DNA of 64,000 bases. Origin: Candidatus Omnitrophota bacterium. GTDB lineage: Bacteria; Omnitrophota; Gorgyraeia; Duberdicusellales; 4484-171. Under the pieces are notes generated by a model. It was not told the origin of the DNA, did no database searches, and saw nothing but the letters and a program-made list of their open reading frames with translations. Location: the NCBI GenBank assembly GCA_041652815.1, contig JBAZGN010000001.1, forward strand, positions 509,855-573,854. Reading direction: 5' to 3'. Positions 35,105 to 61,870 of this stretch are shown in pieces; the first letter of the stretch is position 1; the number at the start of each line of letters is the position of its first letter. A program made the translations under genes and the position numbers.

Positions 35105-35137
35105 ACTTACAACTTAGAACTTATAACTTAGAACTAA
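35105..35137. repeat. Right inverted repeat flanking the four-helix-bundle gene
   Basis: acttacaacttagaacttataacttagaac is the reverse complement of the left repeat's heptamer units. Confidence 0.6.
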
Positions 35138-38894: not shown

Positions 38895-39075
38895 TACACA
38901 GATGACAGACGCAGATGACCACAGATAAAGCTTGCGTCAATCGGTTGCGGTTACGCTGCTTGTATCGGTTGCGCCTTACGTCATGCGTCAGAAGAATAAT
39001 CTACGGGACGCGACCGAATAACCATAGACGAAACGAGCCGCGCAACCGTAAAACGCAACTAATTTTTTTAAATAA

Positions 39076-41059: not shown

Positions 41060-41295
41060 AACTCTAAACCCGAAATCCTAAACCCTAAACAATCCACGAG
41101 CCAGAACAAAGTTCGGTTCGGGGTTGCCCAGAATCGAATTTATTCTGGTTCTGGGTAAAATCGAAACTACAAATCACAAACCCTAAACGTTTCGAGTTTG
41201 GAGTTTCGTGTTTGTGATTTGTTTAGAGTTTTCCGCCAGAGGCGGATCCGCCTTATTTTTTTAAGGTGGCGGACGAGTTTAGTGTTTAGAGTTTT
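41059..41295. repeat. MITE-like element, copy B (TIRs AAACTCTAAAC / GTTTAGAGTTT; CTAAAC heptad repeats; internal stem ACAAATCACAAAC/GTTTGTGATTTGT; GC core; ~70-nt nested palindromic insert at 41091-41160)
   Basis: Aligns base-for-base with 58036-58205 apart from the insert. The left TIR supplies the TAA stop of the upstream GT2 gene. Confidence 0.7.
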
Positions 41296-41318
41296 AATGA
41301 GGCCTAATTTAGCAAGCT

Positions 41319-43433: not shown

Positions 43434-43547
43434 TAAACGCGAATTATCGCGAATGTATACCTTTGTAAAATATTAAAGTATAAACGCTAATTTACGCGAA
43501 TGAATCTATTCGCGGCCATTCGCGTTTGATTAGCGAGAATCAGCGTT
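43434..43547. repeat. CGCGAAT-box intergenic element, copy R1 (contains the perfect IR CGCGAAT-gaatct-ATTCGCG at 43495-43514)
   Basis: Spans exactly from the upstream TAA to the ATG of the 43548 gene. The same ~120-nt pattern is at 54096-54221 and 61081-61259. Confidence 0.65.
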
Positions 43548-44345
43548 ATGAATAAAACAAAATTATCAATTGTGATACTTGCCAAAAATGAAGAAACAAG
43601 GATAAAAGACTGCCTTTCTTCAGTTGTTGGCTGGGCGGATGAAGTAATTGTAATCGATGATGAAAGTACGGATAGAACAGTTGCTATAGCCACGGAATTG
43701 GGTGCTAAGGTGTTTATTAAAAAAATGGATATCGAAGGCGCTCACCGTAACTGGGCATATGCAAAAGCAGCCAATGAGTGGATTTTAAGCCTTGATGCTG
43801 ATGAAAGGCCAACTGATGAATTAAAAGAAGAAATCAGTGCGCTTTTACCTACCAATCCCGCTCAAAGTGCCTTTACAATACCCAGAAGGAATTTTATCGG
43901 TGATTACTGGCTACGCTTCGGCGGACAATATCCAAGTGCCCAGCTTAAATTATTTAAAAAAAGTAAATTTAAATGGGAAGAGGTTGAAGTGCATCCGCGC
44001 CCTGAGCTGGATGGAGAATGCGGCCATCTTGCAAAAGACCTCATACATTATACCTATAGAGATTGGGCTGATTTTTTAAAAAAACTGAATAATCAAACCA
44101 GCCTAGAAGCTACAAAATGGTATAAACTTTCCCTGGAGAATCCTAAAAAAGCGCAATATAAGATGAATACTTTCCACGCTCTGTGGAGGACATTGGACAG
44201 ATTTATCCGCACCTATTTTGCCAAAAAAGGCCACCGTGACGGTTTTAATGGTTTTATGATTGCCTATTTTGCTTCGCTTTATCAAATAGTCAGTTACGCA
44301 AAATACCGTGAACTTAAGAATAAAGATAAATCGAAACACGATTGA
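43548..44345 (+). CDS. GT2 family glycosyltransferase (WaaE/KdtX-like; paralog of 40271-41059)
   Basis: LSIVILAKNEETRIKDCLSSVVGWADEVIVIDDESTDRT...LSLDADE. Confidence 0.75.
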   Translation: MNKTKLSIVILAKNEETRIKDCLSSVVGWADEVIVIDDESTDRTVAIATELGAKVFIKKMDIEGAHRNWAYAKAANEWILSLDADERPTDELKEEISALLPTNPAQSAFTIPRRNFIGDYWLRFGGQYPSAQLKLFKKSKFKWEEVEVHPRPELDGECGHLAKDLIHYTYRDWADFLKKLNNQTSLEATKWYKLSLENPKKAQYKMNTFHALWRTLDRFIRTYFAKKGHRDGFNGFMIAYFASLYQIVSYAKYRELKNKDKSKHD

Positions 44346-44478
44346 AACACAGTAGAAATACAATGGAAATACGGTAGAAATACAATTGTATTTCTATGTA
44401 TTTCACGAGCGAAGCGAGCATATTTCAACCGTATTTCTATTACATCTAAATCGCGCTTTACTTTAATCAACAAAAATA

Positions 44479-45696
44479 ATGTCTAAAAGGCGAATTATAA
44501 TTACCGGTTTGATAGCAATAATTTTTATTGCGCTCTTCTTCAGGTATGCTCATCGCGCCCCAAAGCGGCATTACTGCGATTTCAGGGTTTATTACAATAC
44601 CGCCCAAAGGTTTCTTGCCAAGGAAAATATTTACAGCCGTCCGGATGAAAGTATTACTCCTTTTAAATATTCAGCAGTTTTTGCGCTAATTACTTCACCG
44701 CTTGCGGTAGTATCCCAAAAACAGGCAAGCCTGATATTTTTCACTATAAGTTTTCTTCTGCTTATTCTTACATGCGTGCTTTCCAAGAAAATGATCGTAG
44801 AGCGGAATTTAAGCCCGGGGCAAAATTTCATAATTTATTTTTTCCCGGTATTTTTCAGCTCGCGTTTTATCTTCGCCGTTCTCGATTCCGGGCAGGTTAA
44901 CATAATGATATTTGCGTTAATAATTGCGGGGCTCTATTTATCGCAAAAGGAAAGAGACATTTCAGCCGCAGCATTGATTGCCTTGTCAGTTATGTTTAAA
45001 TATACGTCAATAATATTCTTGCCCTATTTTTTAATCCGCAGAAAGATAAAATTATCAATATTTATGATTTTATTTATGTTGTTTTATTGTTTTATTCCCG
45101 CAGCCTATGTAGGGATAAATACGAATTCGCAGTATCTTAAAAACTGGCTGCCATTTATAACAGAAACCTCTTTGGATAAAGGCTCGTGGTATGATGCGAA
45201 GAATCAGTCGCTTTATTCCTTTATCTTGCGTACATTTAGCGCGGATTCTTCCTTTAACCCCATAGCTCAATTAACCTTTATGCAGGCACTTGCCATTTCT
45301 GCAGCAATTGGAATGCTTATCTATCTTTTAATAATAGTTAAAAAGAAAAATAACGAGACAAAAGTTATTGATTATGCTCTTTTATTCCTATGTACGGCGT
45401 TGTTTAACCCAAATGCCTGGCTGGTAAATTTCGTAATTTTTGTTTTTGCATACATGGTAATTATCCGCCACCTGTTAACTGTAAAGTTTAAAGATAAAAT
45501 TACTTTAATTTTTATGGTGTTGTCTTTTATTTCTTCAAGCTGGGCAGCGGAATCTGTTGTTGGGGATAATTTGCAAAAATTCTTTGAATCGCTTTCAACA
45601 GTAACAATTGCAGCGCTTATTTTAGTGGTTATATTGTTATATTTAAAATTTAGTAGAGGAATAACCAAGTTCCAAGATACAATAACCAAACAATAA
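44479..45696 (+). CDS. DUF2029 / GT87-like polytopic membrane glycosyltransferase
   Basis: N-terminal DFRVYYNTAQRFLAKENIYS...PFKYSAVFALITSPL is typical of GT87/DUF2029 mannosyltransferase-like proteins. Confidence 0.5.
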   Translation: MSKRRIIITGLIAIIFIALFFRYAHRAPKRHYCDFRVYYNTAQRFLAKENIYSRPDESITPFKYSAVFALITSPLAVVSQKQASLIFFTISFLLLILTCVLSKKMIVERNLSPGQNFIIYFFPVFFSSRFIFAVLDSGQVNIMIFALIIAGLYLSQKERDISAAALIALSVMFKYTSIIFLPYFLIRRKIKLSIFMILFMLFYCFIPAAYVGINTNSQYLKNWLPFITETSLDKGSWYDAKNQSLYSFILRTFSADSSFNPIAQLTFMQALAISAAIGMLIYLLIIVKKKNNETKVIDYALLFLCTALFNPNAWLVNFVIFVFAYMVIIRHLLTVKFKDKITLIFMVLSFISSSWAAESVVGDNLQKFFESLSTVTIAALILVVILLYLKFSRGITKFQDTITKQ

Positions 45697-45871
45697 TCAA
45701 TAACCAAATTCTAATAACCAAACGGAAAAATCGATGGAATTGTTTGGTGATTGGTTATTGGAATTTGTTTGTATCTTGTATCTTGGTCATTGGTTATTTT
45801 ATGGGGTAATCCATACAACGAAGCAGTGTCGTAAACTATAAATTTCGTAATTCACGCGAGGTAGCGCAAGA

Positions 45872-47236
45872 ATGGACCAACAGAACTTCGGATTTTTAAA
45901 AACAGAAAAGGTTTACAGTATCTTTGAGTTGAATAATACCGTCAAAAAACTCATCCGTATGGATTTTCCTGACTATGTGTGGGTATGCGGCGAAATACAG
46001 GATTTACGCGACAGAGGCACTATAAATTTAAATCTTGTGCAAAAACATCCCGAGGCGAATGAAATAATGGCACAGGCTAATGCGGTTATTTTTGAAAATG
46101 TAAAACCGCAGATAACAAAGCGTATAGCAGAAACAAACGGAGCTTTTGAATTAAAGAAAGACATTGAAGTAAAACTGCTCTGTAAAGTTGATTTATATGT
46201 AAAGACAGGCAAATTCAGCCTGACTGTTTTTGATATCGATACTGTTTATACTTTGGGGAAAATGGCGGCATCCCGGCAAAGGATAATTGAAGAATTAAGG
46301 GCCAAGGGATTGCTTGAACGTAATAAGCTTATTCCAATGGCGCAAATTCCTTTAAAGGTAGGCCTTATAACTGCGCCTGATTCTGCCGCGTATCATGACG
46401 TGCTTGATGAGTTTAAAAAAAGTAAATATGGATTTAAAATATTTATATACAGCTGTTACATGCAAGGTAAATTAGTAGAAAGTGATGTAACCGCCGCGCT
46501 TAATTTCTTTAATAATTTATCACGAGATGAGCTTGATGTAATTATGATTGCAAGAGGCGGCGGCTCAACCGCAGATTTAAGCTGGTTTGACAATAAAAAA
46601 ATTGCCGAAACCGTAGCCATGCTGAAATTTCCTCTAATATCTGCCATAGGCCATGAGATAAATACAAGTATTACCGATATGGTTGCGCATACTTTTGTTA
46701 AAACTCCCACCAAGGGAGCTCAATTTATAATTGAAAGGGTGAAAGAATTTATCAATTCTCTGGAGGATATTGAACAAAGGATTGGGTTAGGAGTGAAAGA
46801 TTTTCTTGAGAATAGCAACAATCAACTGGCAATGTTAACCTCTAAATGCGATTCCGGTGCCAGCCGCTATTTTCAATTTCATAAAGAAGAGCTTTCATCG
46901 AAGAAAGCTAATATTAGTAATTTCACAAAAAAGTTTTTAAGTATGCGCCGGCAAGAGCTTTTAGGAAGTTACGATATTTTTAAATTAAAATTAAATACAC
47001 TTTTATCCGATTCACGTGATAGCATGAAGCATGCAGAAAGTAAGGTCCGGCTGCTTGATCCTAAAAATGTTTTAAAAAGAGGTTATTCCATAACCTTCAA
47101 GGATTCAAAGCCTATAAAATCTATTGACGATATAAATGAAAATGATATCATAAAAACCGTCCTTTATGAAGGTAATATCATTTCTCGCGTAGAAGAAAAA
47201 CAAAAGGAAAATGAGCAAAAAAACAATAAAATATAA
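45872..47236 (+). CDS. xseA: Exodeoxyribonuclease VII large subunit
   Basis: OB-fold N-terminus (VWVCGEIQDL), and LKVGLITAPDSAAYHDV...RGGGSTADLSWFDN. Confidence 0.85.
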   Translation: MDQQNFGFLKTEKVYSIFELNNTVKKLIRMDFPDYVWVCGEIQDLRDRGTINLNLVQKHPEANEIMAQANAVIFENVKPQITKRIAETNGAFELKKDIEVKLLCKVDLYVKTGKFSLTVFDIDTVYTLGKMAASRQRIIEELRAKGLLERNKLIPMAQIPLKVGLITAPDSAAYHDVLDEFKKSKYGFKIFIYSCYMQGKLVESDVTAALNFFNNLSRDELDVIMIARGGGSTADLSWFDNKKIAETVAMLKFPLISAIGHEINTSITDMVAHTFVKTPTKGAQFIIERVKEFINSLEDIEQRIGLGVKDFLENSNNQLAMLTSKCDSGASRYFQFHKEELSSKKANISNFTKKFLSMRRQELLGSYDIFKLKLNTLLSDSRDSMKHAESKVRLLDPKNVLKRGYSITFKDSKPIKSIDDINENDIIKTVLYEGNIISRVEEKQKENEQKNNKI

Positions 47237-47438
47237 CGAGGCGATTAACGAATTAAACGGCATACTTTCCGACTTAGAATCGGAAAGGGTAGATGTTGAT
47301 GAGTTGACTACTCGGGTAAAAAGAGCAGTTGAACTTATTAAATTATGCCGCGAAAAGATTGAAGAAACAGAGCTTGAAGTCAGAAAGATAGTTAAAGAAT
47401 TTGACAAAGGCTCGGATAAGGAAGAAACCGCCAAGTAA
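47211..47438 (+). CDS. xseB: Exodeoxyribonuclease VII small subunit
   Basis: 75 aa; YNEAINELNGILSDLESERVDVDELTTRVKRAVELIKLCREKIE. Overlaps xseA by 26 nt. Confidence 0.85.
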   Translation: MSKKTIKYNEAINELNGILSDLESERVDVDELTTRVKRAVELIKLCREKIEETELEVRKIVKEFDKGSDKEETAK

Positions 47439-47520
47439 ACTTCGAAAAGCTATCAGCTTTCGGCTTTCAGCTGCTGATAGCTTACGACTGATAGCTGAAA
47501 GCTTTCCCGGAGGTAATAAT

Positions 47521-48495
47521 ATGTTTAGTCTACGATTAAGAATGTCAATCCTGGTAATTATACTGTTTGCGATTCTTTATGCTATAGCATCGCTTATAAT
47601 GCATTATCTGGGTGTGCGAGGTTTCCTACCGCAAGTTTTACTCGCGGTTGGGATGATGCTTTTCCAATATCTGGTAGGCCCGAAAATTGTAGAGCTCTCG
47701 ATGCATGTAAAATATGTAAAAAAGGAAGATGTACCCTGGTTGTTTGAAATGGTTGAGGGTCTCTCCCGGCGGGCGAATGTTCCTATGCCCAAAATCGGGA
47801 TTGCCCATATAAACGTGCCGAATGCTTTTGCTTTCGGAAGAAGCCTGAAAGACGGAAGAATATGCGTTACCAAAGGTGTTCTGGACTTATTAAACAAAGA
47901 GGAACTGCGTGCTGTATTGGGCCATGAAATGACCCATCTAAAAAGCAGAGATGTTCTTTTTATCACTTTACTTTCGGTTGTACCGCTTATCTTATACTAT
48001 ATTTTTTTGCATTTCAGCCTTTATGGTTCGTATTCACGCAGGCGCGAAAGTGGAGGCTCCGCAGCTTTAATAGGTATTGCGGCATTCGTATTTTATTTCG
48101 TTACAAACCTTTTGGTTTTGTATGCTTCACGCATAAGAGAATATTTCGCGGATAAAGGTTCTTTAGATTTAGGAAACTCTCCGGCAAGCTTGGCAACAGC
48201 GCTCTACAAGCTTGTTTATGGCGCAGCCCGCCTTCCTAAAGAGAATTTACGCGAAATTGAAGGAGTGAAGGCTTTCTTTCTTAACGATTTATCCAAGGCA
48301 AAAAGCGAAATATCTGATTTGGCACAGCTTGATTTGGACAGAACAGGAACCATTGATCCTTATGAATTGCGTAGTTTAGCACAAAAGAAGATAAACTTAA
48401 GTTTTGCGGATAAGGCTATGGAGATTTTAAGCACCCATCCGAATATGCTAAAGCGCATAAAGCATCTTTCAGAGTATAACAAGGGGCAAGCTTAG
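47521..48495 (+). CDS. htpX: M48-family zinc metalloprotease HtpX
   Basis: HEMTHLKSRD (HExxH) and 4 transmembrane helices. ATG at 47521 follows a GGAGG RBS; the track's 47401 start is a TTG inside xseB. Confidence 0.8.
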   Translation: MFSLRLRMSILVIILFAILYAIASLIMHYLGVRGFLPQVLLAVGMMLFQYLVGPKIVELSMHVKYVKKEDVPWLFEMVEGLSRRANVPMPKIGIAHINVPNAFAFGRSLKDGRICVTKGVLDLLNKEELRAVLGHEMTHLKSRDVLFITLLSVVPLILYYIFLHFSLYGSYSRRRESGGSAALIGIAAFVFYFVTNLLVLYASRIREYFADKGSLDLGNSPASLATALYKLVYGAARLPKENLREIEGVKAFFLNDLSKAKSEISDLAQLDLDRTGTIDPYELRSLAQKKINLSFADKAMEILSTHPNMLKRIKHLSEYNKGQA

Positions 48496-48512
48496 GGGCA
48501 TATATTGGGCAT

Positions 48513-48545
48513 AGTGCAGTAAAATACCTGTTATTTTACTGCACT
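48513..48545 (+). terminator. Perfect 14-bp stem hairpin after htpX (AGTGCAGTAAAATA-cctgt-TATTTTACTGCACT); no U-tract
   Basis: The inverted repeat is directly visible in the sequence. The lack of a T-run makes intrinsic-terminator function uncertain. Confidence 0.4.
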
Positions 48546-48565
48546 GCCGTGTCCTAAAAAACTAA

Positions 48566-48594
48566 TTGACCCAAATTGGGATTTCTGCTATAAT
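48566..48594 (+). promoter_or_regulatory. Sigma70-type promoter TTGACC-17-TATAAT upstream of the rpsO leader
   Basis: ttgacc at 48566-48571 and tataat at 48589-48594, followed by a ~145-nt GC-rich structured leader (GGCCAAAGGCC hairpin, T-tract at 48683-48689). Confidence 0.5.
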
Positions 48595-48741
48595 CTATTT
48601 TAGCTAAAAGTTTCTGCCTACGCTAAACGGCTCCGGCAGACAGTCCAGCAGGCCAAAGGCCTAGTGGGTAAGCTTGCCTTCCCTTTTTTCAACAGAAGCC
48701 TAAGGGTTGACAGAAAAACAATAAAAAGGTATTATATTATT

Positions 48742-49005
48742 ATGTTGGCAAAGAACAAAAAGAAAAAACTAATTGAGAAGTTTAAAGAGCATCCCCAAGA
48801 TACCGGTTCCGCCTCTGTGCAGGTAGCATTGCTTACAGAAAGGATTAACTATTTAACGGATCATTTAAAAAAACACAAGAAAGACTTCCATTCTCGCCGC
48901 GGCCTGCTTATGCTTGTAGGAAGACGCCGCCGCCTTCTTAATTATCTTAAGAAAAAGGATCCTCAAGGCTATAGCGGGGTTGCAAAGGAGCTTAACCTTA
49001 AATAA
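48742..49005 (+). CDS. rpsO: 30S ribosomal protein S15
   Basis: LTERINYLTDHLKKHKKDFHSRRGLLMLVGRRRRLLNYL. ATG at 48742; the track's 48664 start is a non-ATG extension. Confidence 0.9.
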   Translation: MLAKNKKKKLIEKFKEHPQDTGSASVQVALLTERINYLTDHLKKHKKDFHSRRGLLMLVGRRRRLLNYLKKKDPQGYSGVAKELNLK

Positions 49006-49006
49006 A

Positions 49007-53358: not shown

Positions 53359-54098
53359 CGATAGAAGAACTTTGTGTAAAATTACAGCAGAAAAGAAATA
53401 CTCTTGGGCTTACTCTTGAAGAGGTTGTTGAAAAAACCAAGTTGTACCCTTCCGTAATAAGAGATATAGAATCCGGCAGTTTAAGCAATATAAGTAATGC
53501 GTATCTTAAAGGCTACATAAAGATATATGCATCTTTTCTTAGCGTAGATGTTGAAGATGCGTTAGATAAAATTAATCTTGCTCAAGCCAACCTATCCAAG
53601 GTTGCGCCGGTAAAAGAGGAAAAACAGGTAGAGGAAAAACCAAAATTAAAGCTTAAGCCCCTGCCGCCAAAAGTTAAAAAAATTATTTTTTATTTGATAG
53701 CGCTAATATTTATTTTATGGATAGCAACGGGAGCGATTCGTTTCGTTTCAAAAAACTTTACAAAATTAGCGAAAAAACCTGTGAAAAGAACTGCAGCGGC
53801 AGTTATAAAAATTCCAGCCATTTCCAAAAAAATGCAAAATGAGGTTAATGCAGCGCTTACGGCAAAGAGAGATTGTTTTATAAGAACCAAGGTTGACGGT
53901 AAAGTTCTTTTTGAGGGAGTGATTAAAAAAGGAATGTCTGAAAGCTGGAAGGGAAATCGTGAAATAGAATTCAAGATAAGTGACGGCTCTGCCGTGTATC
54001 TCGAAGTAAACGGGAAATCTTTGCCATCCTTAACCTCTTCGTCAAAATCAATAAAAAGCCTGAAAGTAAACTCATCCGGAATCTCTATTGTTAAGTAA
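53355..54098 (+). CDS. rodZ: RodZ-like cytoskeleton protein (HTH_25 + TM + DUF4115)
   Basis: The N-terminal HTH (LGLTLEEVVEKTKLYPSVIRDIESG), a single transmembrane helix, and a C-terminal beta-rich domain. Confidence 0.6.
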   Translation: MTIEELCVKLQQKRNTLGLTLEEVVEKTKLYPSVIRDIESGSLSNISNAYLKGYIKIYASFLSVDVEDALDKINLAQANLSKVAPVKEEKQVEEKPKLKLKPLPPKVKKIIFYLIALIFILWIATGAIRFVSKNFTKLAKKPVKRTAAAVIKIPAISKKMQNEVNAALTAKRDCFIRTKVDGKVLFEGVIKKGMSESWKGNREIEFKISDGSAVYLEVNGKSLPSLTSSSKSIKSLKVNSSGISIVK

Positions 54099-54221
54099 AC
54101 GCGAATATTCGCAAATTTTAACCCTAATAGTTTCATTAAGGTATAAGCGCGAATTCACGCGAATGATTAAATAGTAATTTATTCGCGACTATTTGCGTTA
54201 GATTCGCGATAATTAGCGTAT
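54096..54221. repeat. CGCGAAT-box intergenic element, copy R2
   Basis: taaacgcgaatattcgc...aggtataagcgcgaattcacgcgaatg...ttattcgcgac...gattcgcgataattagcgtat abutting the ATG at 54222. Confidence 0.65.
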
Positions 54222-55496
54222 ATGAAGAGAAAAAATTTATCAATTGTGTCCCTTGGTTGTTTCAGAAATACCTATGACTCTGAAACTGTATTGAATAGGT
54301 TTTTGGAGCAAGGGTATAGTTTTTCTTCCCGGGAAAATATTTTTCTTACAGGAAAGGATAATTTTAAATCCTGCGACACTCTGCTTGTAAATACGTGCGG
54401 TTTTATCGACCGCGCAAAAGAGGAATCCATAGAATTTATCAGGCAGGCAGTCCGGTTGAAGAAGGAAGGCAAAGTAAAAAGTTTGTTTGTTTTTGGTTGT
54501 CTTGTTGAGCGGTATCAGGAGAAACTAAAGGCATCTTTCCCGGAAGTTGATAAATGGTGGGGGACGGAAAATTTTCCCCAAAACGAAATCCGGCAGAAGA
54601 AAATTATGCCGGCACACCTTGATTTTATAAAAATATGCGAAGGCTGTCTTAATAAATGCACTTATTGCACAATACCTCAAATAAAGGGAGATTTAAGAAG
54701 CAAACCCAAAGAGCAAATCATAAATGAAGTAAAATTCCTGGATAAAAAGGGCATAAAAGAATTAAATATTATCGGCCAGGATATAACCAGTTGGGCAAAA
54801 GATTTAAAGACAAAAGATGATTTATCTTCTTTGCTTCGCGCAATACTTAAAACGACAAAAAACATAAGCTGGATAAGGCTTCTTTATACTCATCCGCGCC
54901 ACGTTAGCGACAAGTTGATAGACCTGATTGCCAACGAAGAACGAATATGTAAATATATTGATTTGCCCATCCAGCATATAAATGATAGAATTCTACAATT
55001 GATGAATAGAGGTGTTACAAAAAAACAAATAACCAGCCTAATTAAAAAGATAAGAAAAAATATTAAAAGCTGTGTTATAAGAACGTCAGTTATGGCGGGG
55101 TTTCCTACGGAAACCGCCGATGAATTTAAAGAGCTGTTAAATTTTTTGAAAGAAACCAGGTTTGAACGTCTCGGCGCATTTACGTATTCCAGGGAAGAAA
55201 ATACCCCAGCATTCAGTTTAGAGCCCCAGGTGCATAATAAAGTTAAGCTGTCGCGTTTTAAAGAGATTATGAGCCTGCAGCAAGGTATTTCCTGTGAAGT
55301 TAACAAGCGGTTCCTTGATAAACACCTTGATGTTTTGATTGAAGAGAAAGATAATGAAGTTTTCATAGGAAGAACGCAATTCGATGCTTATGAAGTTGAC
55401 GGGGTAGTGTTTTTGAAGAAAAAAAACCTTAAACTAGGGAAATTTTATAAAGCGAAAATAATCGATAACTATGATTATGATTTGGTTGGCATTTAA
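54222..55496 (+). CDS. rimO: Radical SAM methylthiotransferase, RimO/MiaB family (probably ribosomal protein S12 methylthiotransferase)
   Basis: N-terminal MTTase domain (SLGCFRNTYDSE), CEGCLNKCTYCTIP radical SAM motif, and a C-terminal TRAM domain; 424 aa. Confidence 0.7.
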   Translation: MKRKNLSIVSLGCFRNTYDSETVLNRFLEQGYSFSSRENIFLTGKDNFKSCDTLLVNTCGFIDRAKEESIEFIRQAVRLKKEGKVKSLFVFGCLVERYQEKLKASFPEVDKWWGTENFPQNEIRQKKIMPAHLDFIKICEGCLNKCTYCTIPQIKGDLRSKPKEQIINEVKFLDKKGIKELNIIGQDITSWAKDLKTKDDLSSLLRAILKTTKNISWIRLLYTHPRHVSDKLIDLIANEERICKYIDLPIQHINDRILQLMNRGVTKKQITSLIKKIRKNIKSCVIRTSVMAGFPTETADEFKELLNFLKETRFERLGAFTYSREENTPAFSLEPQVHNKVKLSRFKEIMSLQQGISCEVNKRFLDKHLDVLIEEKDNEVFIGRTQFDAYEVDGVVFLKKKNLKLGKFYKAKIIDNYDYDLVGI

Positions 55497-55621
55497 CACA
55501 GATAATCACAAATTTGAACCAGATTATCACAGATGATATGAATTCTGTAACACGTCACAGGTAACACGTTTTTAAAACGTGATACGTGTGACGTGTAACG
55601 TGATACCTGCTGTGTATTAAT

Positions 55622-56191
55622 ATGAACATCGCAAATTACCTCACATTCTTAAGGATTATCCTGGCATTTATCTGCATCGGATTTATACTGCATAATGATT
55701 TTAATTCAATCTTTATTGCCTTTATAATTTTTATTATTGCCTCGATAACTGACTTGCTTGATGGTATATTTGCCAGAAGGCAGAATCTTATATCGGACCT
55801 TGGAAAATTGCTTGATCCAATCGCCGATAAAATTTTAATCATCGGTGTATTCCTCGCGTTTTTGCAGCTTAAAGTAGTAGTAAATGCCTGGATGGTAAGC
55901 GTTATAATGCTTAGGGAATTTATTATTACGGGGCTACGGCTTTATGTTTTAAAATCAGGCGAAGTCCTTGAGGCAAAAAGGTGGGGCAAGCATAAAACGG
56001 TTTCACAAGTATTTGGGATAGTTGTAATTTTTATATCTTTGCTGCTTTTCAGAAAATTTCCTCAAAATAGCCTCGTTATTTTTCTATATGAAAAAGTAAC
56101 ACATGTAATAATGTGGTACGTTGTTCTTATCACTCTTTTTTCCGGCGTATCTTATTTTTGGATAAATAGAAAGTTGATAAAGACGTTTTAG
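55622..56191 (+). CDS. pgsA: CDP-diacylglycerol--glycerol-3-phosphate 3-phosphatidyltransferase
   Basis: NIANYLTFLRIIL and DLLDGIFARRQNLISDLGKLLDPIADK (CDP-alcohol phosphatidyltransferase motif). Confidence 0.85.
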   Translation: MNIANYLTFLRIILAFICIGFILHNDFNSIFIAFIIFIIASITDLLDGIFARRQNLISDLGKLLDPIADKILIIGVFLAFLQLKVVVNAWMVSVIMLREFIITGLRLYVLKSGEVLEAKRWGKHKTVSQVFGIVVIFISLLLFRKFPQNSLVIFLYEKVTHVIMWYVVLITLFSGVSYFWINRKLIKTF

Positions 56192-56282
56192 CAAAAAGGT
56201 TGAGGTTAAGGTTTAGGTTGAGAAATGCAAAGTTTAGTCTGATCCTTAACCTCAACCTTAGCCTTAACCTTCTTTTGGAACC

Positions 56283-56744
56283 ATGAAGAAGACATCTCTA
56301 TTAGATAAATTGTGCATAGCAATAACCACGCTTTTTGGAATCGGCTACGCACCACTTTTTAGCGGGACATTGGCTTCAGTTGTGGCAGTTATTGTTTTTC
56401 TGCTAATAAAAACAAGGCTCTACTTTTTGATTTTCACCGCTATCTCAATATTGCTTTCTTTTCTACTTGCCAGCCGTGCGGAAAAGATTTTTAAAGAAAA
56501 AGACTGCAAAAAAATAGTTATTGATGATTTCTCCGGTATGCTTTTAGCTCTTTTGCTTGTTCCTTATGATATTCGGTTTGTGGTTTGTGCCTTCATACTT
56601 TTCCGCGTATTTGACGCTTTTAAAATCCCACCCATAGATAAAATTGAACGGTTAAACGGCGCAGCAGGGGTTGTTGGTGATGACCTAATGGCTGGATTTT
56701 ATTCGCTGGTTGCGCTGCAGATAGTCAGATTGTTTGTGAGATAG
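56283..56744 (+). CDS. pgpA: Phosphatidylglycerophosphatase A
   Basis: GIGYAPLFSGTLASVVAV...VIDDFSGMLLALL...GAAGVVGDDLMAGFYS. Confidence 0.8.
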   Translation: MKKTSLLDKLCIAITTLFGIGYAPLFSGTLASVVAVIVFLLIKTRLYFLIFTAISILLSFLLASRAEKIFKEKDCKKIVIDDFSGMLLALLLVPYDIRFVVCAFILFRVFDAFKIPPIDKIERLNGAAGVVGDDLMAGFYSLVALQIVRLFVR

Positions 56745-56760
56745 AAACCAAAGTGGAGCC

Positions 56761-56785
56761 GTAGGACGTAAAGCGTGGGATGTCC
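56761..56785. repeat. Left inverted repeat (GGACGTAAAGCGTGGGATGTCC; ACGTNNN heptads) flanking the TPR gene
   Basis: 19 of 21 nt complementary to 57432-57466. Confidence 0.5.
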
Positions 56786-56929
56786 GCTCGCTTTGCTCGC
56801 TAGGACGAGAGACGAAAGAAAATGAAAGGGCGAAGATAGAAAGAATAAAATTTTTTACTTTATGGCCCCTGTGATAATCTATTACAGAGGGGTTTTAAAT
56901 GGTATAAGTTGTTACAAGAAAGGAGAACG

Positions 56930-57331
56930 ATGAAGAATAAAAAAATTATCGTAATTTCAATTGTTATACTTCTGTTACTTGCCATAATATACGGACTTTT
57001 TCTATTGAGACCTTTCTTTTGGTGGTGTAGGGGCAGCATCTATGAACAACAGCAACCAGAGCGGGCAATATATTATTTCAATAAGGCGATACTAATGAGG
57101 CCAGATTACGTAGAAGCATATTTTTATTCAAGGTTTAAAGGGGAAGGCAAAAATCTCTCAGCATATAGCGGTGGTTTAGCTGTTTGTTACCAGATTCTTG
57201 GCGAAAACGATAAAGCAAGAGAATATTATAATAAGGCACTCGAACTATATCATAAACACGGCGATAAAACAGGCGTTATAGTATTGATAAATGCTAATCT
57301 AAAATTACTAGATAATAGGAATAAAAAATAG
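56930..57331 (+). CDS. Small membrane-anchored tetratricopeptide-repeat protein
   Basis: N-terminal transmembrane helix and TPR-like AIYYFNKAILMRPDYVEAYF...AREYYNKALELY. ATG at 56930 follows an AAAGGAGAACG RBS; the track's 56909 start is a TTG. Confidence 0.55.
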   Translation: MKNKKIIVISIVILLLLAIIYGLFLLRPFFWWCRGSIYEQQQPERAIYYFNKAILMRPDYVEAYFYSRFKGEGKNLSAYSGGLAVCYQILGENDKAREYYNKALELYHKHGDKTGVIVLINANLKLLDNRNKK

Positions 57332-57431
57332 TTTAGATTATATTATTTATCTTTCTATGGATTTTTCTGTTTCTTCTGAATATAACCGATAGCAAAATTC
57401 ATCCAGTCAAAGCCACCTTCACCTTTCCGAG

Positions 57432-57466
57432 CTTCTATTGTCCACGTTCTACGTCCCACGTTTTAC
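57432..57466. repeat. Right inverted repeat flanking the TPR gene
   Basis: gtccacgttctacgtcccacgttttacgtcc; its reverse complement contains GGACGTAAAACGTGGGACGT. Confidence 0.5.
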
Positions 57467-57474
57467 GTCCTTCT

Positions 57475-58023
57475 TTATCCTTGTAACGGCGCGCAGAATA
57501 ATTTTTCATAAACCGGGCCGGTAGGCTTAAGTAGGCTTTTAAAAAGAATTATTTCGCTAACTGCAAACTTAGCTTCAATAGTCATACCTTTCATTTCATT
57601 CTTAAGGCAATCAATATTTCTTTTAGTTCGAAACCTTGCAATAGTAAGGTGAGATTTAAAACGGCCTTCCTTAGGAAAACCCAAGCTTTCAAGCTTATCT
57701 TCAAGCTGTAGGGAGATATTTTTTAATATTTCCTCATTGTCTGTTGATATAAAAAATACTCTCGGTGATGTTTCGTTAGGGAAAAAACCAAAGCTGCCTA
57801 CGTTAAGTTCCAATTGACTGAAATTACCGGCAGTTGTTTTTATTATATTTTTAATTTTATCGAGCTGTTCCTCAGAAACTTCCCCCAAAAACTTTAAAGT
57901 CATATGAATGTTTGAAGTATTAACCCATTTTGCATCTAAATCACATTTTTTAAGCCTGGTAACTGCGCGCGATAATTTTTCTTTTAAATCTTCCGGAATG
58001 TCTATGGCAATGAATAAACGCAT
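57475..58023 (-). CDS. thpR: RNA 2',3'-cyclic phosphodiesterase (2H family, LigT/ThpR)
   Basis: Two H-x-[TS]-x motifs (HMTLKFLG and HLTIARF); 182 aa. Confidence 0.8.
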   Translation of the reverse strand: MRLFIAIDIPEDLKEKLSRAVTRLKKCDLDAKWVNTSNIHMTLKFLGEVSEEQLDKIKNIIKTTAGNFSQLELNVGSFGFFPNETSPRVFFISTDNEEILKNISLQLEDKLESLGFPKEGRFKSHLTIARFRTKRNIDCLKNEMKGMTIEAKFAVSEIILFKSLLKPTGPVYEKLFCAPLQG

Positions 58024-58035
58024 ATTTTTTCTTAA

Positions 58036-58205
58036 AAACTCTAAATCCGAAACCCTAAACTCTAAACAAACTCGAAACTACAAATCACAAACTCTAAACG
58101 TTTCAAGTTTATGGTTTCGTGTTTGTAGTTTGTTTAGGATTTCCCGCCTTAGGCGGGTCCGCCTTATTTTTTAAAGGTGGCGGAAGAGTTTAGTGTTTAG
58201 AGTTT
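58036..58205. repeat. MITE-like element, copy C (same TIRs and GC core as copy B, lacking the nested insert)
   Basis: About 90% identical to 41059-41295 outside the insert. Its right TIR supplies the last codons and stop of the minus-strand cinA-like gene. Confidence 0.7.
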
Positions 58206-58663
58206 AACCTTCGGCATAATAAATCTACAGCCATTCGGCTTGCTTGTTTGCGGACATAATCCCTACTGCCCTTAAGCAGGATTTTTTTCGAAGCTACGCC
58301 ATATCTATCCGCAACAGCCATAAATATTGTGCCTACTTTTATACCCTTTTGAGCAGGGGCCGAGGCGAAACCTACCAAAGAAACCGCTAAATCTGTTTTA
58401 AAAAATTGTTTTGTTCGTTTCGCAAGAAGGATTGAAATGCTTTTAGAAACCCCTAGCGTTTTATTGAGCAGCGGCAGTGGTATGTGCAGCAATTTATTTT
58501 TGCTTTCCGGAGAATAAACTATGAGCCCGCCTTTAAATACCTTAGAGCTTCCGGGTGTTTTTGTCAGCAGATAAGATAAATAACCACCGCTTACGGATTC
58601 AACCGCAGATATTGTTAATTTTTTGATACGCAGATAAAAAATTAAATTTTTCAATTTAGCCAT
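58190..58663 (-). CDS. CinA C-terminal domain protein (nicotinamide-nucleotide amidohydrolase PncC-like)
   Basis: LTISAVESVSGGYLS...LGVS..SI...GAVS...MA..LA.........DLAVSLVGFASAP. Confidence 0.75.
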   Translation of the reverse strand: MAKLKNLIFYLRIKKLTISAVESVSGGYLSYLLTKTPGSSKVFKGGLIVYSPESKNKLLHIPLPLLNKTLGVSKSISILLAKRTKQFFKTDLAVSLVGFASAPAQKGIKVGTIFMAVADRYGVASKKILLKGSRDYVRKQASRMAVDLLCRRLNSKH

Positions 58664-58816
58664 ATCAATATTTTACCAAACTTACGGTTTTAAGCCAGCT
58701 ATAAGTATCATTAAAGCAGAATAGCCTCATTTGCTGCCTTTTACCAGGCAAAATGCTTCTGTTGTTAAGCGGAATTTTAGGGCAGAAAAGCATCAATTCT
58801 GGGTAGACTTAAACCT

Positions 58817-58846
58817 TTGACACCGGCACGCCGCCTGCGTTATAAT
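58817..58846 (+). promoter_or_regulatory. Sigma70-type promoter TTGACA-18-TATAAT for the ldh-like gene
   Basis: ttgaca at 58817-58822 and tataat at 58841-58846. AAGAGGAG RBS lies before the ATG at 58900. Confidence 0.55.
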
Positions 58847-58899
58847 ATACGCCTAAAAAGGTATAAATCGTGGCTATAATTATAAAAAGAGGAGCAAAA

Positions 58900-59841
58900 A
58901 TGCTTATACCAAAAGTTTCAATTATAGGCAGCGGCAATGTAGGCATGCGTTATGCTTATAGCTTAATGATGGCTAATCTTGCACGTTCCATAGTTATTTT
59001 TGATATCGATAAGAAACGAACGGAAGGCGAAGCCATGGACCTTGCAAGCTGTATGCCGTTTGTTTCGCCCGTTGATATTGCCGTCGGAGATTACCCTGAC
59101 TTAAAAGGCTCGGATATTATAGTTATCACTGCCGGAGCAAAACAGAAACCAGGCGAGAACCGGCTCGGCCTGGCAAAGCAAAACGTAGGTATATATAAAG
59201 AGATAATTCCTAAAATAATGAAATATGCCGAAGGGGCAATATTTATCATAGTGACAAACCCGGTAGATGTACTTAGCTACGCAGCTTACAAAATCTCTCA
59301 AAAACCATGGCAGGAAATTATTGGTTCGGGAACAGTATTGGATAGCGCAAGGTTTCGGCTATTGCTATCCAAGCATTGCAATGTAGATGCCCGTAATGTT
59401 CATGCTTATATATTGGGTGAGCATGGAGACAGTGAGTTTCCTGTATGGAGCCGCGCAATGATTGGGGGAGTTTTATTCAAAGATTATTGTCCGATGTGCA
59501 ATAAATGCAATGCAAAAACTACCCTTCCCGGGATATTTAATGAGGTTAAGAATTTTGCCTATGAAATTATCCAAAGAAAAGGGGAAACTTCTTACGGTGT
59601 AGGCCTTGCGCTTACCAGAATAACCAGTGCTATTTTAAAAGACGAAAGTTCTATTTTACCGGTTTCTTCTTTGGTAGATAATTATTATGATGTGGGTGGC
59701 GTTTATATGAGCGTGCCGGCGGTTGTAGATAAAAAAGGCGTAAGAGAACTTCTTAAGCTTAAACTTGAACCAGAAGAAATCTCTAATTTTCAAGAATCAG
59801 CTAAGCTTATAAAAGAGGTTATAAAGTCAAGCGGATTATGA
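58900..59841 (+). CDS. L-lactate/malate dehydrogenase family protein (LDH-like)
   Basis: VSIIGSGNVG, ITAGAKQKPGENRL, and GEHGDSEFPVWS catalytic-His region. ATG at 58900; the track's 58870 start is a GTG. Confidence 0.75.
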   Translation: MLIPKVSIIGSGNVGMRYAYSLMMANLARSIVIFDIDKKRTEGEAMDLASCMPFVSPVDIAVGDYPDLKGSDIIVITAGAKQKPGENRLGLAKQNVGIYKEIIPKIMKYAEGAIFIIVTNPVDVLSYAAYKISQKPWQEIIGSGTVLDSARFRLLLSKHCNVDARNVHAYILGEHGDSEFPVWSRAMIGGVLFKDYCPMCNKCNAKTTLPGIFNEVKNFAYEIIQRKGETSYGVGLALTRITSAILKDESSILPVSSLVDNYYDVGGVYMSVPAVVDKKGVRELLKLKLEPEEISNFQESAKLIKEVIKSSGL

Positions 59842-59971
59842 ACCCCGCCCTTCCTGGGAAACGCAGAAGTTGAGAGGGAAGGGCGGGGTGAACCCAGCCC
59901 TTCCTAAGAAGGCGCAGGGGCTCAAAGGAAGGTCTGGGATAAAAATAATAATTTTAAAAAGGAAGGGCTGG

Positions 59972-60682
59972 GTGAAAGAAGCAAGAATAAAATTCATCGA
60001 AAAAATAAAAAGAACTTCCACTATCACAAGTTTCCGGTTTTTACCGCGCGAAAAAATAGATTTTATTCCCGGACAATTCCTGCAGCTCCTGTTCGATGAG
60101 AATAACAGGAAAAATAAAGGCTTGAATAAATATCTTTCATTTTCCTGTTCGCCGCAAAAGCCGTATATAGAAGTTACCAAACGCCTAAGCGAAAGTGAAT
60201 TCTCACGTAAACTTATTAATCTGGATAAAGGCGATGAAATATTAGCACAAGCTCCACTTGGAAATGTTGTCTTCCGGCAGGAAATGAGAAATATCACCTT
60301 TCTTATAGGCGGTATAGGCATAACTCCGGTTATCTCTATATTGGAATATATATGCGAGAAGAATTTAGATACTAATGCACTTGTGTTTTATTCAAACAGG
60401 AGCGAGGAAGATATAGCGTTTAGAGAGGATCTTGATTCTTTGTGCCGCACAAACAAAAATATAAAAATAATCTATACGATAACCGATTGTGCGCCGATAA
60501 ATGACGCGTGCGTATTTGGCCGTATAGACAAGAATTTAATAGAAGAGAAAACTTCCGATTTGGCGAAACGCATAGTTTTTATCTATGGCCCGCCCGGAAT
60601 GGTTACGGCTATGAAGGGGTTATGCTTCGATTTGGGCTGCGAAAAAGAAAACGTGCAAATAGAGAATTTTATCGGTTACTAA
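59972..60682 (+). CDS. FAD/NAD(P)-binding oxidoreductase, ferredoxin-NADP+ reductase-like
   Basis: ITSFRF..R...FIPGQFL FAD-binding barrel and GGIGITPVISILEY NAD-binding motif. Probable GTG start at 59972; the track's 59870 TTG start runs through terminator-like hairpins. Confidence 0.6.
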   Translation: MKEARIKFIEKIKRTSTITSFRFLPREKIDFIPGQFLQLLFDENNRKNKGLNKYLSFSCSPQKPYIEVTKRLSESEFSRKLINLDKGDEILAQAPLGNVVFRQEMRNITFLIGGIGITPVISILEYICEKNLDTNALVFYSNRSEEDIAFREDLDSLCRTNKNIKIIYTITDCAPINDACVFGRIDKNLIEEKTSDLAKRIVFIYGPPGMVTAMKGLCFDLGCEKENVQIENFIGY

Positions 60683-60742
60683 TAATAGAAGGGGGACTGC
60701 GGATGAACGCAATGACCGTGCGTAAATCCGTTTTTATATCTA

Positions 60743-60804
60743 CCCCGCCTCGCCTATATATGTGGTAAATTTTTCAAGAAAAATTTACCACAAGCTCGGC
60801 GGGG
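60743..60804 (+). terminator. Compound perfect hairpin (CCCCGCC...TGTGGTAAATTTTT-caag-AAAAATTTACCACA...GGCGGGG) between the FNR-like and nifU-like genes
   Basis: 14-bp inner stem plus 7-bp GC outer stem. No canonical U-tract, so the role (terminator or other) is uncertain. Confidence 0.4.
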
Positions 60805-60849
60805 TTAAATCGTCCAGCCTTTGGCTGGACAATTTAAGGAGGTCCAATT

Positions 60850-61077
60850 ATGCTAAAAGAAAAAGTAGAAAACGCGCTAAAAGGAATAAGGCCAGCTCTT
60901 CAGGCAGACGGCGGAGATGTTGAACTTGTTGAGGTAACTGAAGATGGTGTAGTTAAGCTGCGCCTTAAGGGCGCTTGCGGGTGTTGTCCCATGAGCACTT
61001 ATACTTTAAAAATGGGGATTGAACAGCGCCTGAAAGAAGAAATTCCCGAGGTTAAAAAAGTAGAACAGGTCAAATGA
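60850..61077 (+). CDS. NifU-like (Nfu-type) Fe-S cluster carrier domain protein
   Basis: 75 aa; [39 protein letters not shown]. Confidence 0.8.
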
Positions 61078-61080
61078 GAG

Positions 61081-61259
61081 GCACGAATGCGCGCGAATTT
61101 AAACCTTGATAGTTTGTAAGGTATAAACGCGAATACTCGCGAATAGAAAAATAGTTGGGAACAAAATTATTCGCGGCCATTCGCATTTCCGCCCCCAGGC
61201 GGATTCGCCTAAACAGTTATAATTGTGGTGGCGAAGATTCGCGACAATTAGCGTTAGGA
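61081..61259. repeat. CGCGAAT-box intergenic element, copy R3, with a nested GC-core hairpin (CCGCCCCCAGGCGGATTCGCC...GGTGGCGAA)
   Basis: Shares the taaacgcgaat...ttattcgcgg...gattcgcgacaattagcgtt scaffold with R1 and R2, plus a 55-nt insertion matching the family-1 GC core. Confidence 0.65.
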
Positions 61260-61769: not shown

Positions 61770-61817
61770 AGCAGGCATTAGATTCTCTGTTATCTGTTAT
61801 CTGTTTTCTGAAACCCA

Positions 61818-61846
61818 TTGACAGGTAAATATATAGGTGGTAGAAT
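61818..61846 (+). promoter_or_regulatory. Sigma70-type promoter TTGACA-17-TAGAAT for the DUF4912-GH57 operon
   Basis: ttgaca at 61818-61823 and tagaat at 61841-61846. AAGAGG RBS lies before the ATG at 61871. TGTTATC tandem repeats sit just upstream at 61786-61808. Confidence 0.5.
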
Positions 61847-61870
61847 TCTTTCACTCAATAAGAGGTATTT

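Follow-up and report, generated by a model that had tools for sequence, protein, structure and literature searches.

We analysed a 64-kb window (64,000 nucleotides of contig JBAZGN010000001.1, from a Candidatus Omnitrophota bacterium) in which three intergenic gaps are filled by copies of a palindromic element built from the heptamer CGCGAAT. According to Pfam the gaps lie between genes for GT9 and GT2 glycosyltransferases, between RodZ and a radical SAM protein of the RimO-MiaB family, and between NifU and a Fer4_5 membrane protein; the downstream genes are thus unrelated, as a first-pass annotation of this DNA had claimed. CGCGAAT has 18 matches on the two strands of the window (mean 8.4 and maximum 16 in dinucleotide-preserving shuffles of the same DNA), and 15 of these fall inside the three gaps, at 43438-43524, 54100-54208 and 61092-61243. 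A repeat search recovered the three regions as families D2, D5 and D8, and their alignment has a mean column identity of 67%. Each copy comprises eight heptamers, four direct (pairs A and B) and then four inverted (pairs C and D), so the shared CGCGAAT-box pattern reported in the first-pass annotation resolves into one 4+4 layout. The start-to-start spacing is 10 nt inside every heptamer pair of all three copies; the A-B spacer, 29-31 nt, is a small side hairpin of its own in the 5′ arm (AACCTT..AAGGT); the C-D spacing is 4 nt in copies 1 and 2 and 51 nt in copy 3. The elements begin 1-9 nt past the upstream stop and end 2-6 nt ahead of the next ATG, which bears out the earlier description of gaps filled from stop to start. 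The three gaps hold copies of an inserted repeat that can fold, is dispersed and belongs to a cross-phylum family; arms of this family bracket genes of the GxxExxY nuclease family in other genomes. With moderate confidence, we read the three regions as copies, devoid of an open reading frame (ORF), of a hairpin-bracketed selfish element, much as miniature inverted-repeat transposable elements (MITEs) or REPINs (paired repetitive extragenic palindromic, or REP, sequences) are.

All three copies are described here on the forward strand. Copy 1 occupies the GT9/GT2 gap (43434-43547, ATG at 43548): the A pair (43438-43454, CGCGAAT tat CGCGAAT) is followed by the side hairpin (43455-43484), the B pair (43485-43501, CGCTAAT tta CGCGAAT), a loop (43502-43507), the C pair (43508-43524, ATTCGCG gcc ATTCGCG) and the D pair (43529-43545, ATTAGCG aga ATCAGCG). 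In copy 2, in the RodZ/RimO gap (54096-54221, ATG at 54222), the first unit comes straight after the TAA stop of the preceding gene (54096-54098); the A pair (54100-54116, CGCGAAT att CGCAAAT), side hairpin (54117-54147), B pair (54148-54164), loop (54165-54180), C pair (54181-54197, ATTCGCG act ATTTGCG) and D pair (54202-54218, ATTCGCG ata ATTAGCG) follow in the same order. Copy 3 spans the NifU/Fer4_5 gap (61078-61259, ATG at 61260), with its A pair at 61082-61098 (CACGAAT gcg CGCGAAT), side hairpin at 61099-61127, B pair at 61128-61144, loop at 61145-61168, C pair at 61169-61185 (ATTCGCG gcc ATTCGCA) and D pair at 61237-61253. Its C/D junction holds a nested 51-nt insertion (61186-61236, forward strand), a CCGCC..GGCGG hairpin module of repeat family D6. 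The spacing between inverted pairs does vary from copy to copy, as the first-pass annotation had stated, although the values are 6, 16 and 24 nt rather than 6, 19 and 26. The CCGCC..GGCGG module occurs four times in the window (36256-36279, 41229-41252, 58140-58163 and, nested in copy 3, 61186-61209), and related modules are present in Omnitrophota relatives (L149, 3209-3308 and 11450-11505; L147, 1551-1576).

A metagenome scan for this lineage-specific variant returned ten loci, the sole true copy among them being a fourth one, in L128, on a contig that shares a Joint Genome Institute (JGI) sample with L002, the carrier of the window RimO; this RimO is 100% identical to a protein of a Candidatus Omnitrophica metagenome-assembled genome. 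The L128 copy has the layout A–side hairpin–B–loop–C–D, as in the window copies; its C/D junction holds a GC hairpin that differs from the module in copy 3, and it ends 8 nt ahead of the ATG of a radical-SAM gene, in what reads from the sequence as a divergent gap. The family is therefore not confined to the three window copies, a limit that would have counted against the earlier proposal: there is the L128 copy, and there are more than 100 related palindromes in other phyla (see below). The composite layout with its 5′-arm side hairpin is common to all four copies, which argues that they were copied from one progenitor.

Comparison with syntenic relatives, whose RimO proteins are 89%, 82%, 82% and 71% identical to that of the window, reveals turnover at the same junctions. 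The RodZ/RimO gap is 123 nt in the window, with 4+4 CGCGAAT units; 78 nt in L146 (the relative with 89% RimO identity), with 2+2 CACGAAT/ATTCGTG units; 104 nt in L148 (an 82% relative), with 2+4 mixed units; and 50 nt and 35 nt in L147 and L149, from which the element is absent. The NifU/Fer4_5 element is present solely in the window lineage among the relatives compared, and the NAD_binding/NifU gap contains CACGAAT palindromes in L146 and L148 and none in the window. The gap between RimO and a CDP-OH-transferase (55497-55621, forward strand) houses a sister family: in the window, four phased CACAGAT/CACAAAT-type units run from the TAA stop and an AACACGT/ACGTGTT palindrome replaces the right arm; in L146-L148 a complete 4+4 CACAGAT/ATCTGYG palindrome extends from stop to ATG. 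Presence, absence and variation at the same junctions, combined with derived features shared within one genome, point to a dispersed, proliferating repeat and not to an operator; the view of a foldable inserted element in the first-pass annotation is thereby strengthened.

That annotation had also suggested that the element may be a portable promoter or 5′-untranslated-region module. On such a reading each copy would carry its own promoter (in the GGTATAA region) and a leader for the downstream gene, much as Correia elements in Neisseria are able to supply transcription downstream. In keeping with this proposal, all four Omnitrophota copies face the downstream gene in the same way and stop 2-8 nt short of its ATG, copy 3 contains, on our own reading, a TTTAAA-N18-TATAAA, and the genes directly 3′ of CGCGAAT elements at 43548, 54222 and L128 2131 are without a Shine-Dalgarno sequence. 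Yet no sigma-70 site scoring at least 9/12 with 16-18-nt spacing lies inside any copy, whereas the same scan finds matches of 11-12/12 at what look like genuine promoters nearby (58817, 48566 and 61818). Moreover, the candidate -35 and -10 hexamers are the two strands of the conserved side hairpin; a promoter-like site at L128 (TTGTCG-N17-TATAAT, read by eye) is situated just upstream of the whole element, that is, 5′ of it; and the cross-phylum relatives are entirely without the GGTATAA segment. We consider a portable promoter improbable, although the copies may hold a weak one. Clear Shine-Dalgarno sequences precede several other window genes (e.g., AAGGAG before 11867 and AGGAGG before 60850), and AAAGGAGG precedes rimO in L149, at the junction without an element.

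To place these copies in a wider family, the pattern CGCGAAT-N3-CGCGAAT-N(4-34)-ATTCGCG was scanned against one genome per GTDB species. There are at least 119 loci, against about 8 expected by chance (our arithmetic: 21 specified bases and 31 gap lengths over 1.2e12 positions). Record titles of the matches listed name Acidobacteriota, Planctomycetota, Verrucomicrobiota, Chloroflexota, Spirochaetota, Omnitrophota, Elusimicrobiota and Bacteroidota, as well as Thiosymbion, and many of the genomes listed have several matches each; the CGCGAAT pattern is also found in 14 viral contigs. The typical form has 3+3 phased units with a 10-nt period (among 109 elements the left arm has three units in 76, two in 29 and four in 4). 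As a class, the palindromes have two inverted arms, each with two to four units of the type C-R-C-N-A-A-T spaced at 9-11 nt, and the 4+4 copies of the window conform to this. A generic detector, which requires an exact 6-mer twice at 9-12-nt spacing and then its reverse complement twice, returned 91 elements in 0.91 Mb of loci, five in the window and none in shuffles; 18 of the 91 are built from other units, namely CACAGAG, CGCAGAT, CACGAAG, CACAAAG, CGCGGAT and CAGTGAT.

Among the matches listed, the palindromes occupy gaps of every orientation (+-, 28; ++, 24; --, 24; -+, 17), and clustering of 610 flanking ORFs uncovered no recurrent neighbour family, the largest cluster having seven members, with the exception of a small GxxExxY cluster. 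The use of all gap types and the lack of a recurring neighbour family make a regulon unlikely. Copies from the same genome resemble one another beyond their heptamers: 25 of 34 same-genome pairs align, for example over 141 nt at 97.9% or over 136 nt at 93.4%, and many of these alignments span 97-154 nt at 80-98% identity. This likeness, together with the shared composite structure, argues for descent from one progenitor and against assembly in place. No target-site duplication was detected, as direct repeats of 2-8 nt at offsets of 0-12 occur at chance frequency around 72 elements. The elements are thus multi-copy and dispersed, and copies of one genome are more alike than those of different genomes. 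Compound palindromes were observed in a viral contig (L138, 2540-2680 and 5150-5300) and in L121, L114 and L022, where outer arms of CACAGAG, CGCAAAG, CGCGAAA or CGCCAAG surround inner CGCGAAT arms; these may be elements nested in another's loop, or arms that change unit along their length.

The exceptional cluster of neighbours has four members, proteins of ~130 aa that are each encoded 10-63 nt from a palindrome. They belong to the GxxExxY family (TIGR04256, E-values 1e-36 to 3e-42; also PF13366, PDDEXK_3). In a profile search of all ORFs in 1.2 Mb, five GxxExxY genes emerged, and 5/5 are within 65 nt of a CGCGAAT palindrome. Their layouts are [left arm]–ORF–[left arm–loop–right arm] in L076, L103 and L024, [palindrome]–ORF–[right arm] in L029, and [palindrome]–ORF–[palindrome] in L010. 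The bracketed genes of these other genomes encode ~125-140 aa and stand in sense orientation between housekeeping genes.

The cleanest form is an arm–ORF–arm insertion between leuA and valS that has CGCGAAT arms and recurs in a large set of metagenome contigs. After the leuA stop, the left arm reads TTA-CGCGAAT-TA-CACCAAT-TAG-CGCGAAT, and the ORF's ATG follows 6 nt later; 2 nt past the TAA of the ORF, the right arm reads ATTCGCG-CTA-ATTAGCG-TA-ATTCGCG-TAA, and 13 nt separate it from the valS ATG. This insertion is kept in several related species, one of which has an [L]–ORF–[L′–loop–R] variant; the site therefore offers a natural data set on arm evolution. Contigs with the insertion, from metagenomes and metagenome-assembled genomes (MAGs), include L157, L167, L185, L186 and L187, and the carriers are probably species of Verrucomicrobiota.

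We also collected ten further GxxExxY genes (plasmid or chromid records supplied eight, a viral contig one and the leuA/valS locus one); these were chosen by protein similarity alone, and so are independent of the motif. All ten have repeats of periodic units beside the ORF, including the other unit sequences CACAGAG, CGGAATAA, CGCGGAT, CACGGAT and ACAAATC. Inverted arms that outscore every shuffle are present in five of them: Bacteroides finegoldii, Bernardetia, Treponema saccharophilum, the viral contig and the leuA/valS locus. The 30-nt arms of B. finegoldii (TTCACCACAGAGGACGCAGAGGACACGGAG … CTCTGTGACCTCTGTGTCCTCTGTGGTGAA) score 21, whereas no shuffle exceeds 9. In Prevotella and in an isolate of Fusobacteria, the ORF has direct arm repeats on either side, and Gemmatirosa, Persicobacter and Sphingomonas have partial arm arrangements. 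The annotated records show GxxExxY genes co-oriented with their neighbours, as in fabD/GxxExxY/fabG and radA/GxxExxY; in the cultivable Sphingomonas parapaucimobilis (L156, NZ_CP155749.1) the gene lies between fabD and fabG at 480-908, three CGCGARG units adjoin its ATG, and fabG starts 2 nt past its stop. The scan of viral contigs for GxxExxY yielded one locus. The CACAGAG arms of the Bacteroides element belong to a family that also forms palindromes without an ORF, in Thiosymbion and in a MAG of Phycisphaerae, and ORF-less and ORF-bearing elements occur together in at least two genomes (L016/L029 and L103/L116, as judged by contig accession prefix).

The GxxExxY protein was modelled with a predicted local distance difference test score (pLDDT) of 93. 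The closest solved folds are those of Cas4 SSO0001, a restriction-endonuclease-like protein and lambda exonuclease; D69, E79 and K81 are invariant or nearly so in the family, and both the D..E-x-K motif and the nuclease fold are intact. No match to GxxExxY was returned by PADLOC, by PHROGs or by a PDB sequence search. The family comprises 26,379 clusters at 50% identity. Many of its representatives have 250-290 aa with two matched stretches (e.g., P0244, P0248 and P0253), and are either tandem double-domain proteins or fused adjacent copies. A survey of PD-(D/E)XK proteins lists the function of GxxExxY as ‘Unknown’ and places the family in mixed-phylum clades, which indicate transfer (PMC3424549). 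Within the literature that we searched, an incomplete set, there is no description of these elements or of their association with GxxExxY; one passage in which GxxExxY is named concerns gene annotation rather than repeats. In that the full-length form brackets a small nuclease gene, a selfish element is likelier than a promoter or an operator.

A different pairing of repeat and enzyme would be a REP or REPIN that is moved by a REP-associated tyrosine transposase (RAYT, a transposase of the HUH Y1 type) encoded elsewhere, with the GxxExxY association being incidental. There are genuine likenesses to REP/REPIN–RAYT systems (REPtrons): dispersed, intergenic, multi-copy, imperfect palindromes without target-site duplication, sequence families that are genome-specific, the same repeats on both sides of a lone small nuclease-type gene, and one element that is vertically stable. 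In addition, GTAG-tagged REPs have been reported in genomes of Chloroflexi and of the Planctomycetes–Verrucomicrobia–Chlamydiae (PVC) group (PMC3733652). Nonetheless, we find at neither end the GTAG or CGTC tag that defines that family (PMC3733652): the consensus of the outer flank is T-rich-NNC/CGCGAAT. The arms consist of two to four phased heptamers, the heptamer is common across phyla whereas REPs are species-specific, and the partner is a PD-(D/E)XK rather than an HUH Y1 protein. The clustering test gave no recurrent transposase-like family within 2.5 kb of the 119 loci listed, and an incidental association is hard to reconcile both with palindromes adjoining all five GxxExxY genes of the profile search and with similar arms bracketing the independently chosen ones. 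A REP/RAYT system is a very unlikely explanation.

An arm–ORF–arm element of the 23S_rRNA_IVP family in the window itself (34693-35135, forward strand) is a full-length relative with the same type of architecture. Its ORF (34728-35102) encodes a bAvd-like four-helix-bundle protein of 124 aa (E = 1e-41), and its arms, at 34693-34717 and 35104-35135, are inverted tandem heptamers, AAGTTCT/AAGTTGT, that pair in two registers: 34693-34712 with 35104-35123 (20 nt, 100%) and, when shifted, over 23 nt at 96%. The element is placed between two plus-strand glycosyltransferase genes, where its left arm runs into the stop codon of the first and 5 nt separate its right arm from the ATG of the second. An identical IVP protein is encoded on other contigs solely in this same context. 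The sole other 23S_rRNA_IVP gene in the collected loci, in L014 from Elusimicrobiota, has GGGATAG/CTATACC arms.

The layout of the window IVP gene is that of the intervening sequences (IVSs) of 23S rRNA genes in Leptospira and Coxiella, in which a small ORF sits in terminal inverted repeats of ~28 bp. The Coxiella IVS, which contains an S23p ORF and has a terminal stem of 28 bp, is described as selfish, and RNase III cut it out of an IVS-containing transcript in vitro (PMC4990558). Unlike these IVSs, the elements that we describe lie between protein-coding genes and not in a 23S rRNA helix; the three CGCGAAT copies are ORF-less, their arms are phased heptamer arrays, and the cargo of CGCGAAT arms is a PD-(D/E)XK nuclease instead of a four-helix-bundle protein.

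The constraints on the arms bear on what recognises them. In 109 elements, T is retained at position 7 of the heptamer in 97-98% and G at position 2 in 88%, and position 4 is variable (C1, C3 and A6 are invariant by definition of the detector); the unit superfamily reads C-R-C-R-R-A-K. Positions 2 and 4 vary nearly independently between paired units, and the 3-nt internal spacers are complementary in 46% of cases versus 34% for shuffled partners, with 28% at the middle position. Immediately beyond the outermost units, 3 nt agree between the two arms at 77-91% (28-63% expected), the outer flanks are rich in T 5′ of the element and in A 3′ of it, and loop length across elements is 3-41 nt. Taken together, these data argue that the units are conserved as sequence and the arms as an inverted pair, with pairing as a by-product.

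Such constraint is what an operator array would also display, and the main rival to a selfish element is that a BldC/Xis-like winged-helix factor, or one of the OmpR/PhoB type, co-regulates the GT2, rimO and Fer4_5 genes and the radical-SAM gene of L128. In favour of this rival, it is the sequence of the heptamers and not their pairing that is conserved, a 10-nt phasing puts the sites on one helix face, Fe-S proteins are the products of three of the four downstream genes, and an 80-aa stand-alone HTH_17 protein is encoded in the window at 11867-12109. BldC forms head-to-tail multimers on 9-bp AATTxxxx(C) repeats such as AATTCGGAC (PMC5859096); the repeat resembles ATTCGCGnn, and BldC/Xis sites share with our elements a short A/T-rich plus C-G unit in direct repeat every 9-10 bp. 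Yet the sites of BldC serve as operators at promoters and do not form inverted arrays around genes. Furthermore, related palindromes are as frequent in convergent gaps, next to unrelated genes; they are present, absent or altered at the same junction among close relatives; the non-heptamer sequence and composite layout that they share speak for copying and not for evolution in place; a rigid dimeric complex on a duplex would not tolerate loops of 3-41 nt; and no consensus promoter is at hand to be controlled. Judged from the sequences, operator arrays of this type would account for the phasing, but not for the distribution, the turnover or the bracketing of ORFs, and we consider them unlikely. 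Of the earlier suggestion of a binding-site array for a regulator, one part can be kept, since the phased, conserved heptamers do look like protein sites, and the other, a regulon, is not supported: the occupation of gaps of all orientations, the unrelated neighbours and the bracketing of a nuclease favour a protein associated with the element. The sites of attC, CtsR, PhoB, NarL, Fur and DtxR match neither the unit sequence nor the layout described here. As a separate observation, the HTH_17 protein at 11867-12109 has an Xis/AlpA/BldC-like winged helix; proteins of this type bind phased direct repeats head-to-tail, so that it is a candidate reader, with no tie to the arrays.

The same periodicity might instead mark an architectural DNA site, 10-bp-periodic and bendable, which gyrase, HU/IHF or another nucleoid protein wraps and next to which the nuclease is merely co-located. 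REP elements and bacterial interspersed mosaic elements (BIMEs) do bind gyrase. The C-R-C-R-R-A-K superfamily amounts to YR steps followed by an A-rich segment, the flanks are T-rich and A-rich, and there is a slight excess of elements in convergent gaps. We nevertheless think this reading implausible, as the central spacing is unfixed (3-41 nt), related elements have arm periods of 7 or 9 nt, the identity of CGCGAAT across phyla far exceeds what bendability needs, and the bracketing of GxxExxY and IVP ORFs would be left unexplained.

A structured cis-regulatory RNA, in the manner of a riboswitch-like leader or attenuator that is conserved for its fold, also deserves comment. Stable folds are predicted for the copies (minimum free energies of -33 to -60 kcal/mol; z-scores of -2.7 to -3.9), with A:D and B:C stems that approximate, in the model, the ~20-30-bp terminal stem of the IVS type. 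The consensus fold of five Omnitrophota sequences has an A:D outer stem, the side hairpin and a B:C inner stem, 43 pairs in all. On the comparative data, however, conservation for an RNA fold seems most unlikely: we find no compensatory changes, the G.T and A.C mismatches are symmetric, and elements occur in both orientations, also between convergent genes. Rfam 15 at its gathering score gave no match in the window, and by E-value eight related loci gave only sub-threshold look-alikes of microRNA-precursor hairpins. Nor are the loops enriched for a remnant of an ORF start codon. We also considered an intrinsic terminator and rejected it: the T-rich 5′ and A-rich 3′ flanks run opposite to the terminator layout.

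Three other kinds of known element invite comparison. Like MITEs such as the Correia elements of Neisseria, the enterobacterial repetitive intergenic consensus (ERIC) and the repeat unit of pneumococcus (RUP), ours are short, ORF-less, hairpin-capable inverted repeats in intergenic regions and operons; MITEs are co-transcribed with their neighbours and related to longer ORF-bearing elements, a likeness that we draw to the present family. They differ in having no target-site duplication at any offset and no DDE transposase partner, and in that both the termini and a set of internal repeated units are conserved. Integron attC sites (e.g., Vibrio cholerae repeats, VCRs) are also imperfect palindromes, of ~60-130 bp, that fill gaps between co-oriented genes, have a variable centre and are alike within one genome. 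Our elements, by contrast, lack RYYYAAC/GTTRRRY cores, have termini that vary by lineage (AAC, GCC, GGC, GTC, ATC) and are flanked by syntenic housekeeping genes rather than by cassettes, with no integrase context seen. Free-standing genes for PD-(D/E)XK homing endonucleases, of which I-Ssp6803I is an example, resemble the GxxExxY insertions as small nuclease genes within conserved gene arrays; they differ in that there is no intron or intein context here, and hairpin arms and ORF-less copies have no counterpart among them.

We hypothesize that the ORF-less copies are non-autonomous derivatives that would be spread or maintained via their arms, and that the phased heptamers would serve as recognition sites for a protein that the element encodes or is associated with, the GxxExxY nuclease being the prime candidate. 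In a polycistronic RNA the arms could pair, such that the base of the stem would set the upstream stop beside the downstream start, which would render insertion inside operons tolerable; by analogy with the IVSs of 23S rRNA that carry S23p ORFs, the paired stem would be a likely substrate for RNase III. If the stem does pair or is processed in this way, any effect on GT2, rimO and Fer4_5 would be post-transcriptional (processing, stability or translational coupling) and not promoter activity.

Several observations weigh against a selfish, nuclease-linked element. Neither the 64-kb window nor ~95 kb of sequence from related Omnitrophota contains a GxxExxY gene, so that the link to the nuclease rests on other phyla. 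The vertical conservation of the leuA/valS insertion indicates a stable resident that is not visibly mobile. Protein clades match arm type only in part, and arm periods range from 7 to 10 nt and differ between types of cargo, so that a single mechanism of reading by helical phase cannot be general. At the RNA level, a compensatory change was seen in none of the 43 consensus pairs of the five Omnitrophota sequences, there are as many G.T as A.C mismatches (23:23), and the better-folding strand tracks the gene strand weakly (19 versus 12); any role for the RNA is accordingly putative. Our observations include no mobility event, RNA end or protein-DNA contact.

Other repeats and genes of the window are recorded here in their own right. 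Palindromes broadly of this sort, each built from a unit of its own, occur in many of the intergenic gaps that exceed 90 nt. Gaps with short-unit repeats or palindromes are at 38895-39075, 41060-41318, 44346-44478, 45697-45871, 55497-55621, 56192-56282, 56745-56908, 57332-57474, 58024-58189, 60683-60849 and 61770-61870; the units differ (CACAGAT, CTAAAC, GAAATAC, AATAACCAA, GGTTRAG, GGACGT, CTGTTAT and others), and the predicted folds of four such gaps have z-scores of -3.8 to -7.2. A repeat of 138 nt is present twice in the window at 88% identity (41157-41294 and 58068-58205). The gap at 38895-39075 and L149 15931-16018, which are non-orthologous junctions, share CACAGAT units followed by CGGTTGCG/TTACG segments (74% over 88 nt); this CACAGAT–CGGTTGCG/TTACG repeat suggests a second mobile family in the lineage. 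A 132-aa ORF at 32919-33317 matches only the N-terminal part of Glycos_transf_2 and is overlapped by a 90-aa ORF (33301-33573) that matches no family; together they may represent a split or frameshifted glycosyltransferase, and the same split is found on assembly L181.

Hairpin-bracketed selfish ORFs, REP/RAYT pairs and MITEs are kinds of element that are already known; what appear to be new are arms of phased heptamers, a PD-(D/E)XK partner and the breadth across phyla. We put forward tentatively, as a wider proposal about which we have more doubt than belief, that GxxExxY genes and their phased-heptamer arms constitute unrecognised, cross-phylum, nuclease-associated mobile elements that reside in operons: the arrays would act as a recognition code, the heptamer families (CGCGAAT, CACAGAG, CGCAGAT and others) would match nuclease lineages, the ORF-less palindromes would be derivatives or landing sites, and the IVP elements would form a sister branch.

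If the link holds, it would supply the first functional context for GxxExxY, a large orphan family, and would connect that family to the long-puzzling ORFs in the intervening sequences of 23S rRNA. A minimal nuclease that reads a short repeated code would, if true, be of interest for engineering. Repeats of this type may fragment metagenome assemblies, and many GxxExxY proteins are encoded on contigs of 0.5-2 kb; the palindromes can also be mistaken for promoters, operators or small RNAs. Finally, the link would account for a conspicuous class of intergenic palindromes in Acidobacteriota, Planctomycetota, Verrucomicrobiota, Chloroflexota and Omnitrophota, phyla that are environmentally dominant and poorly studied, and in which phased-heptamer repeats may influence the expression of operons.

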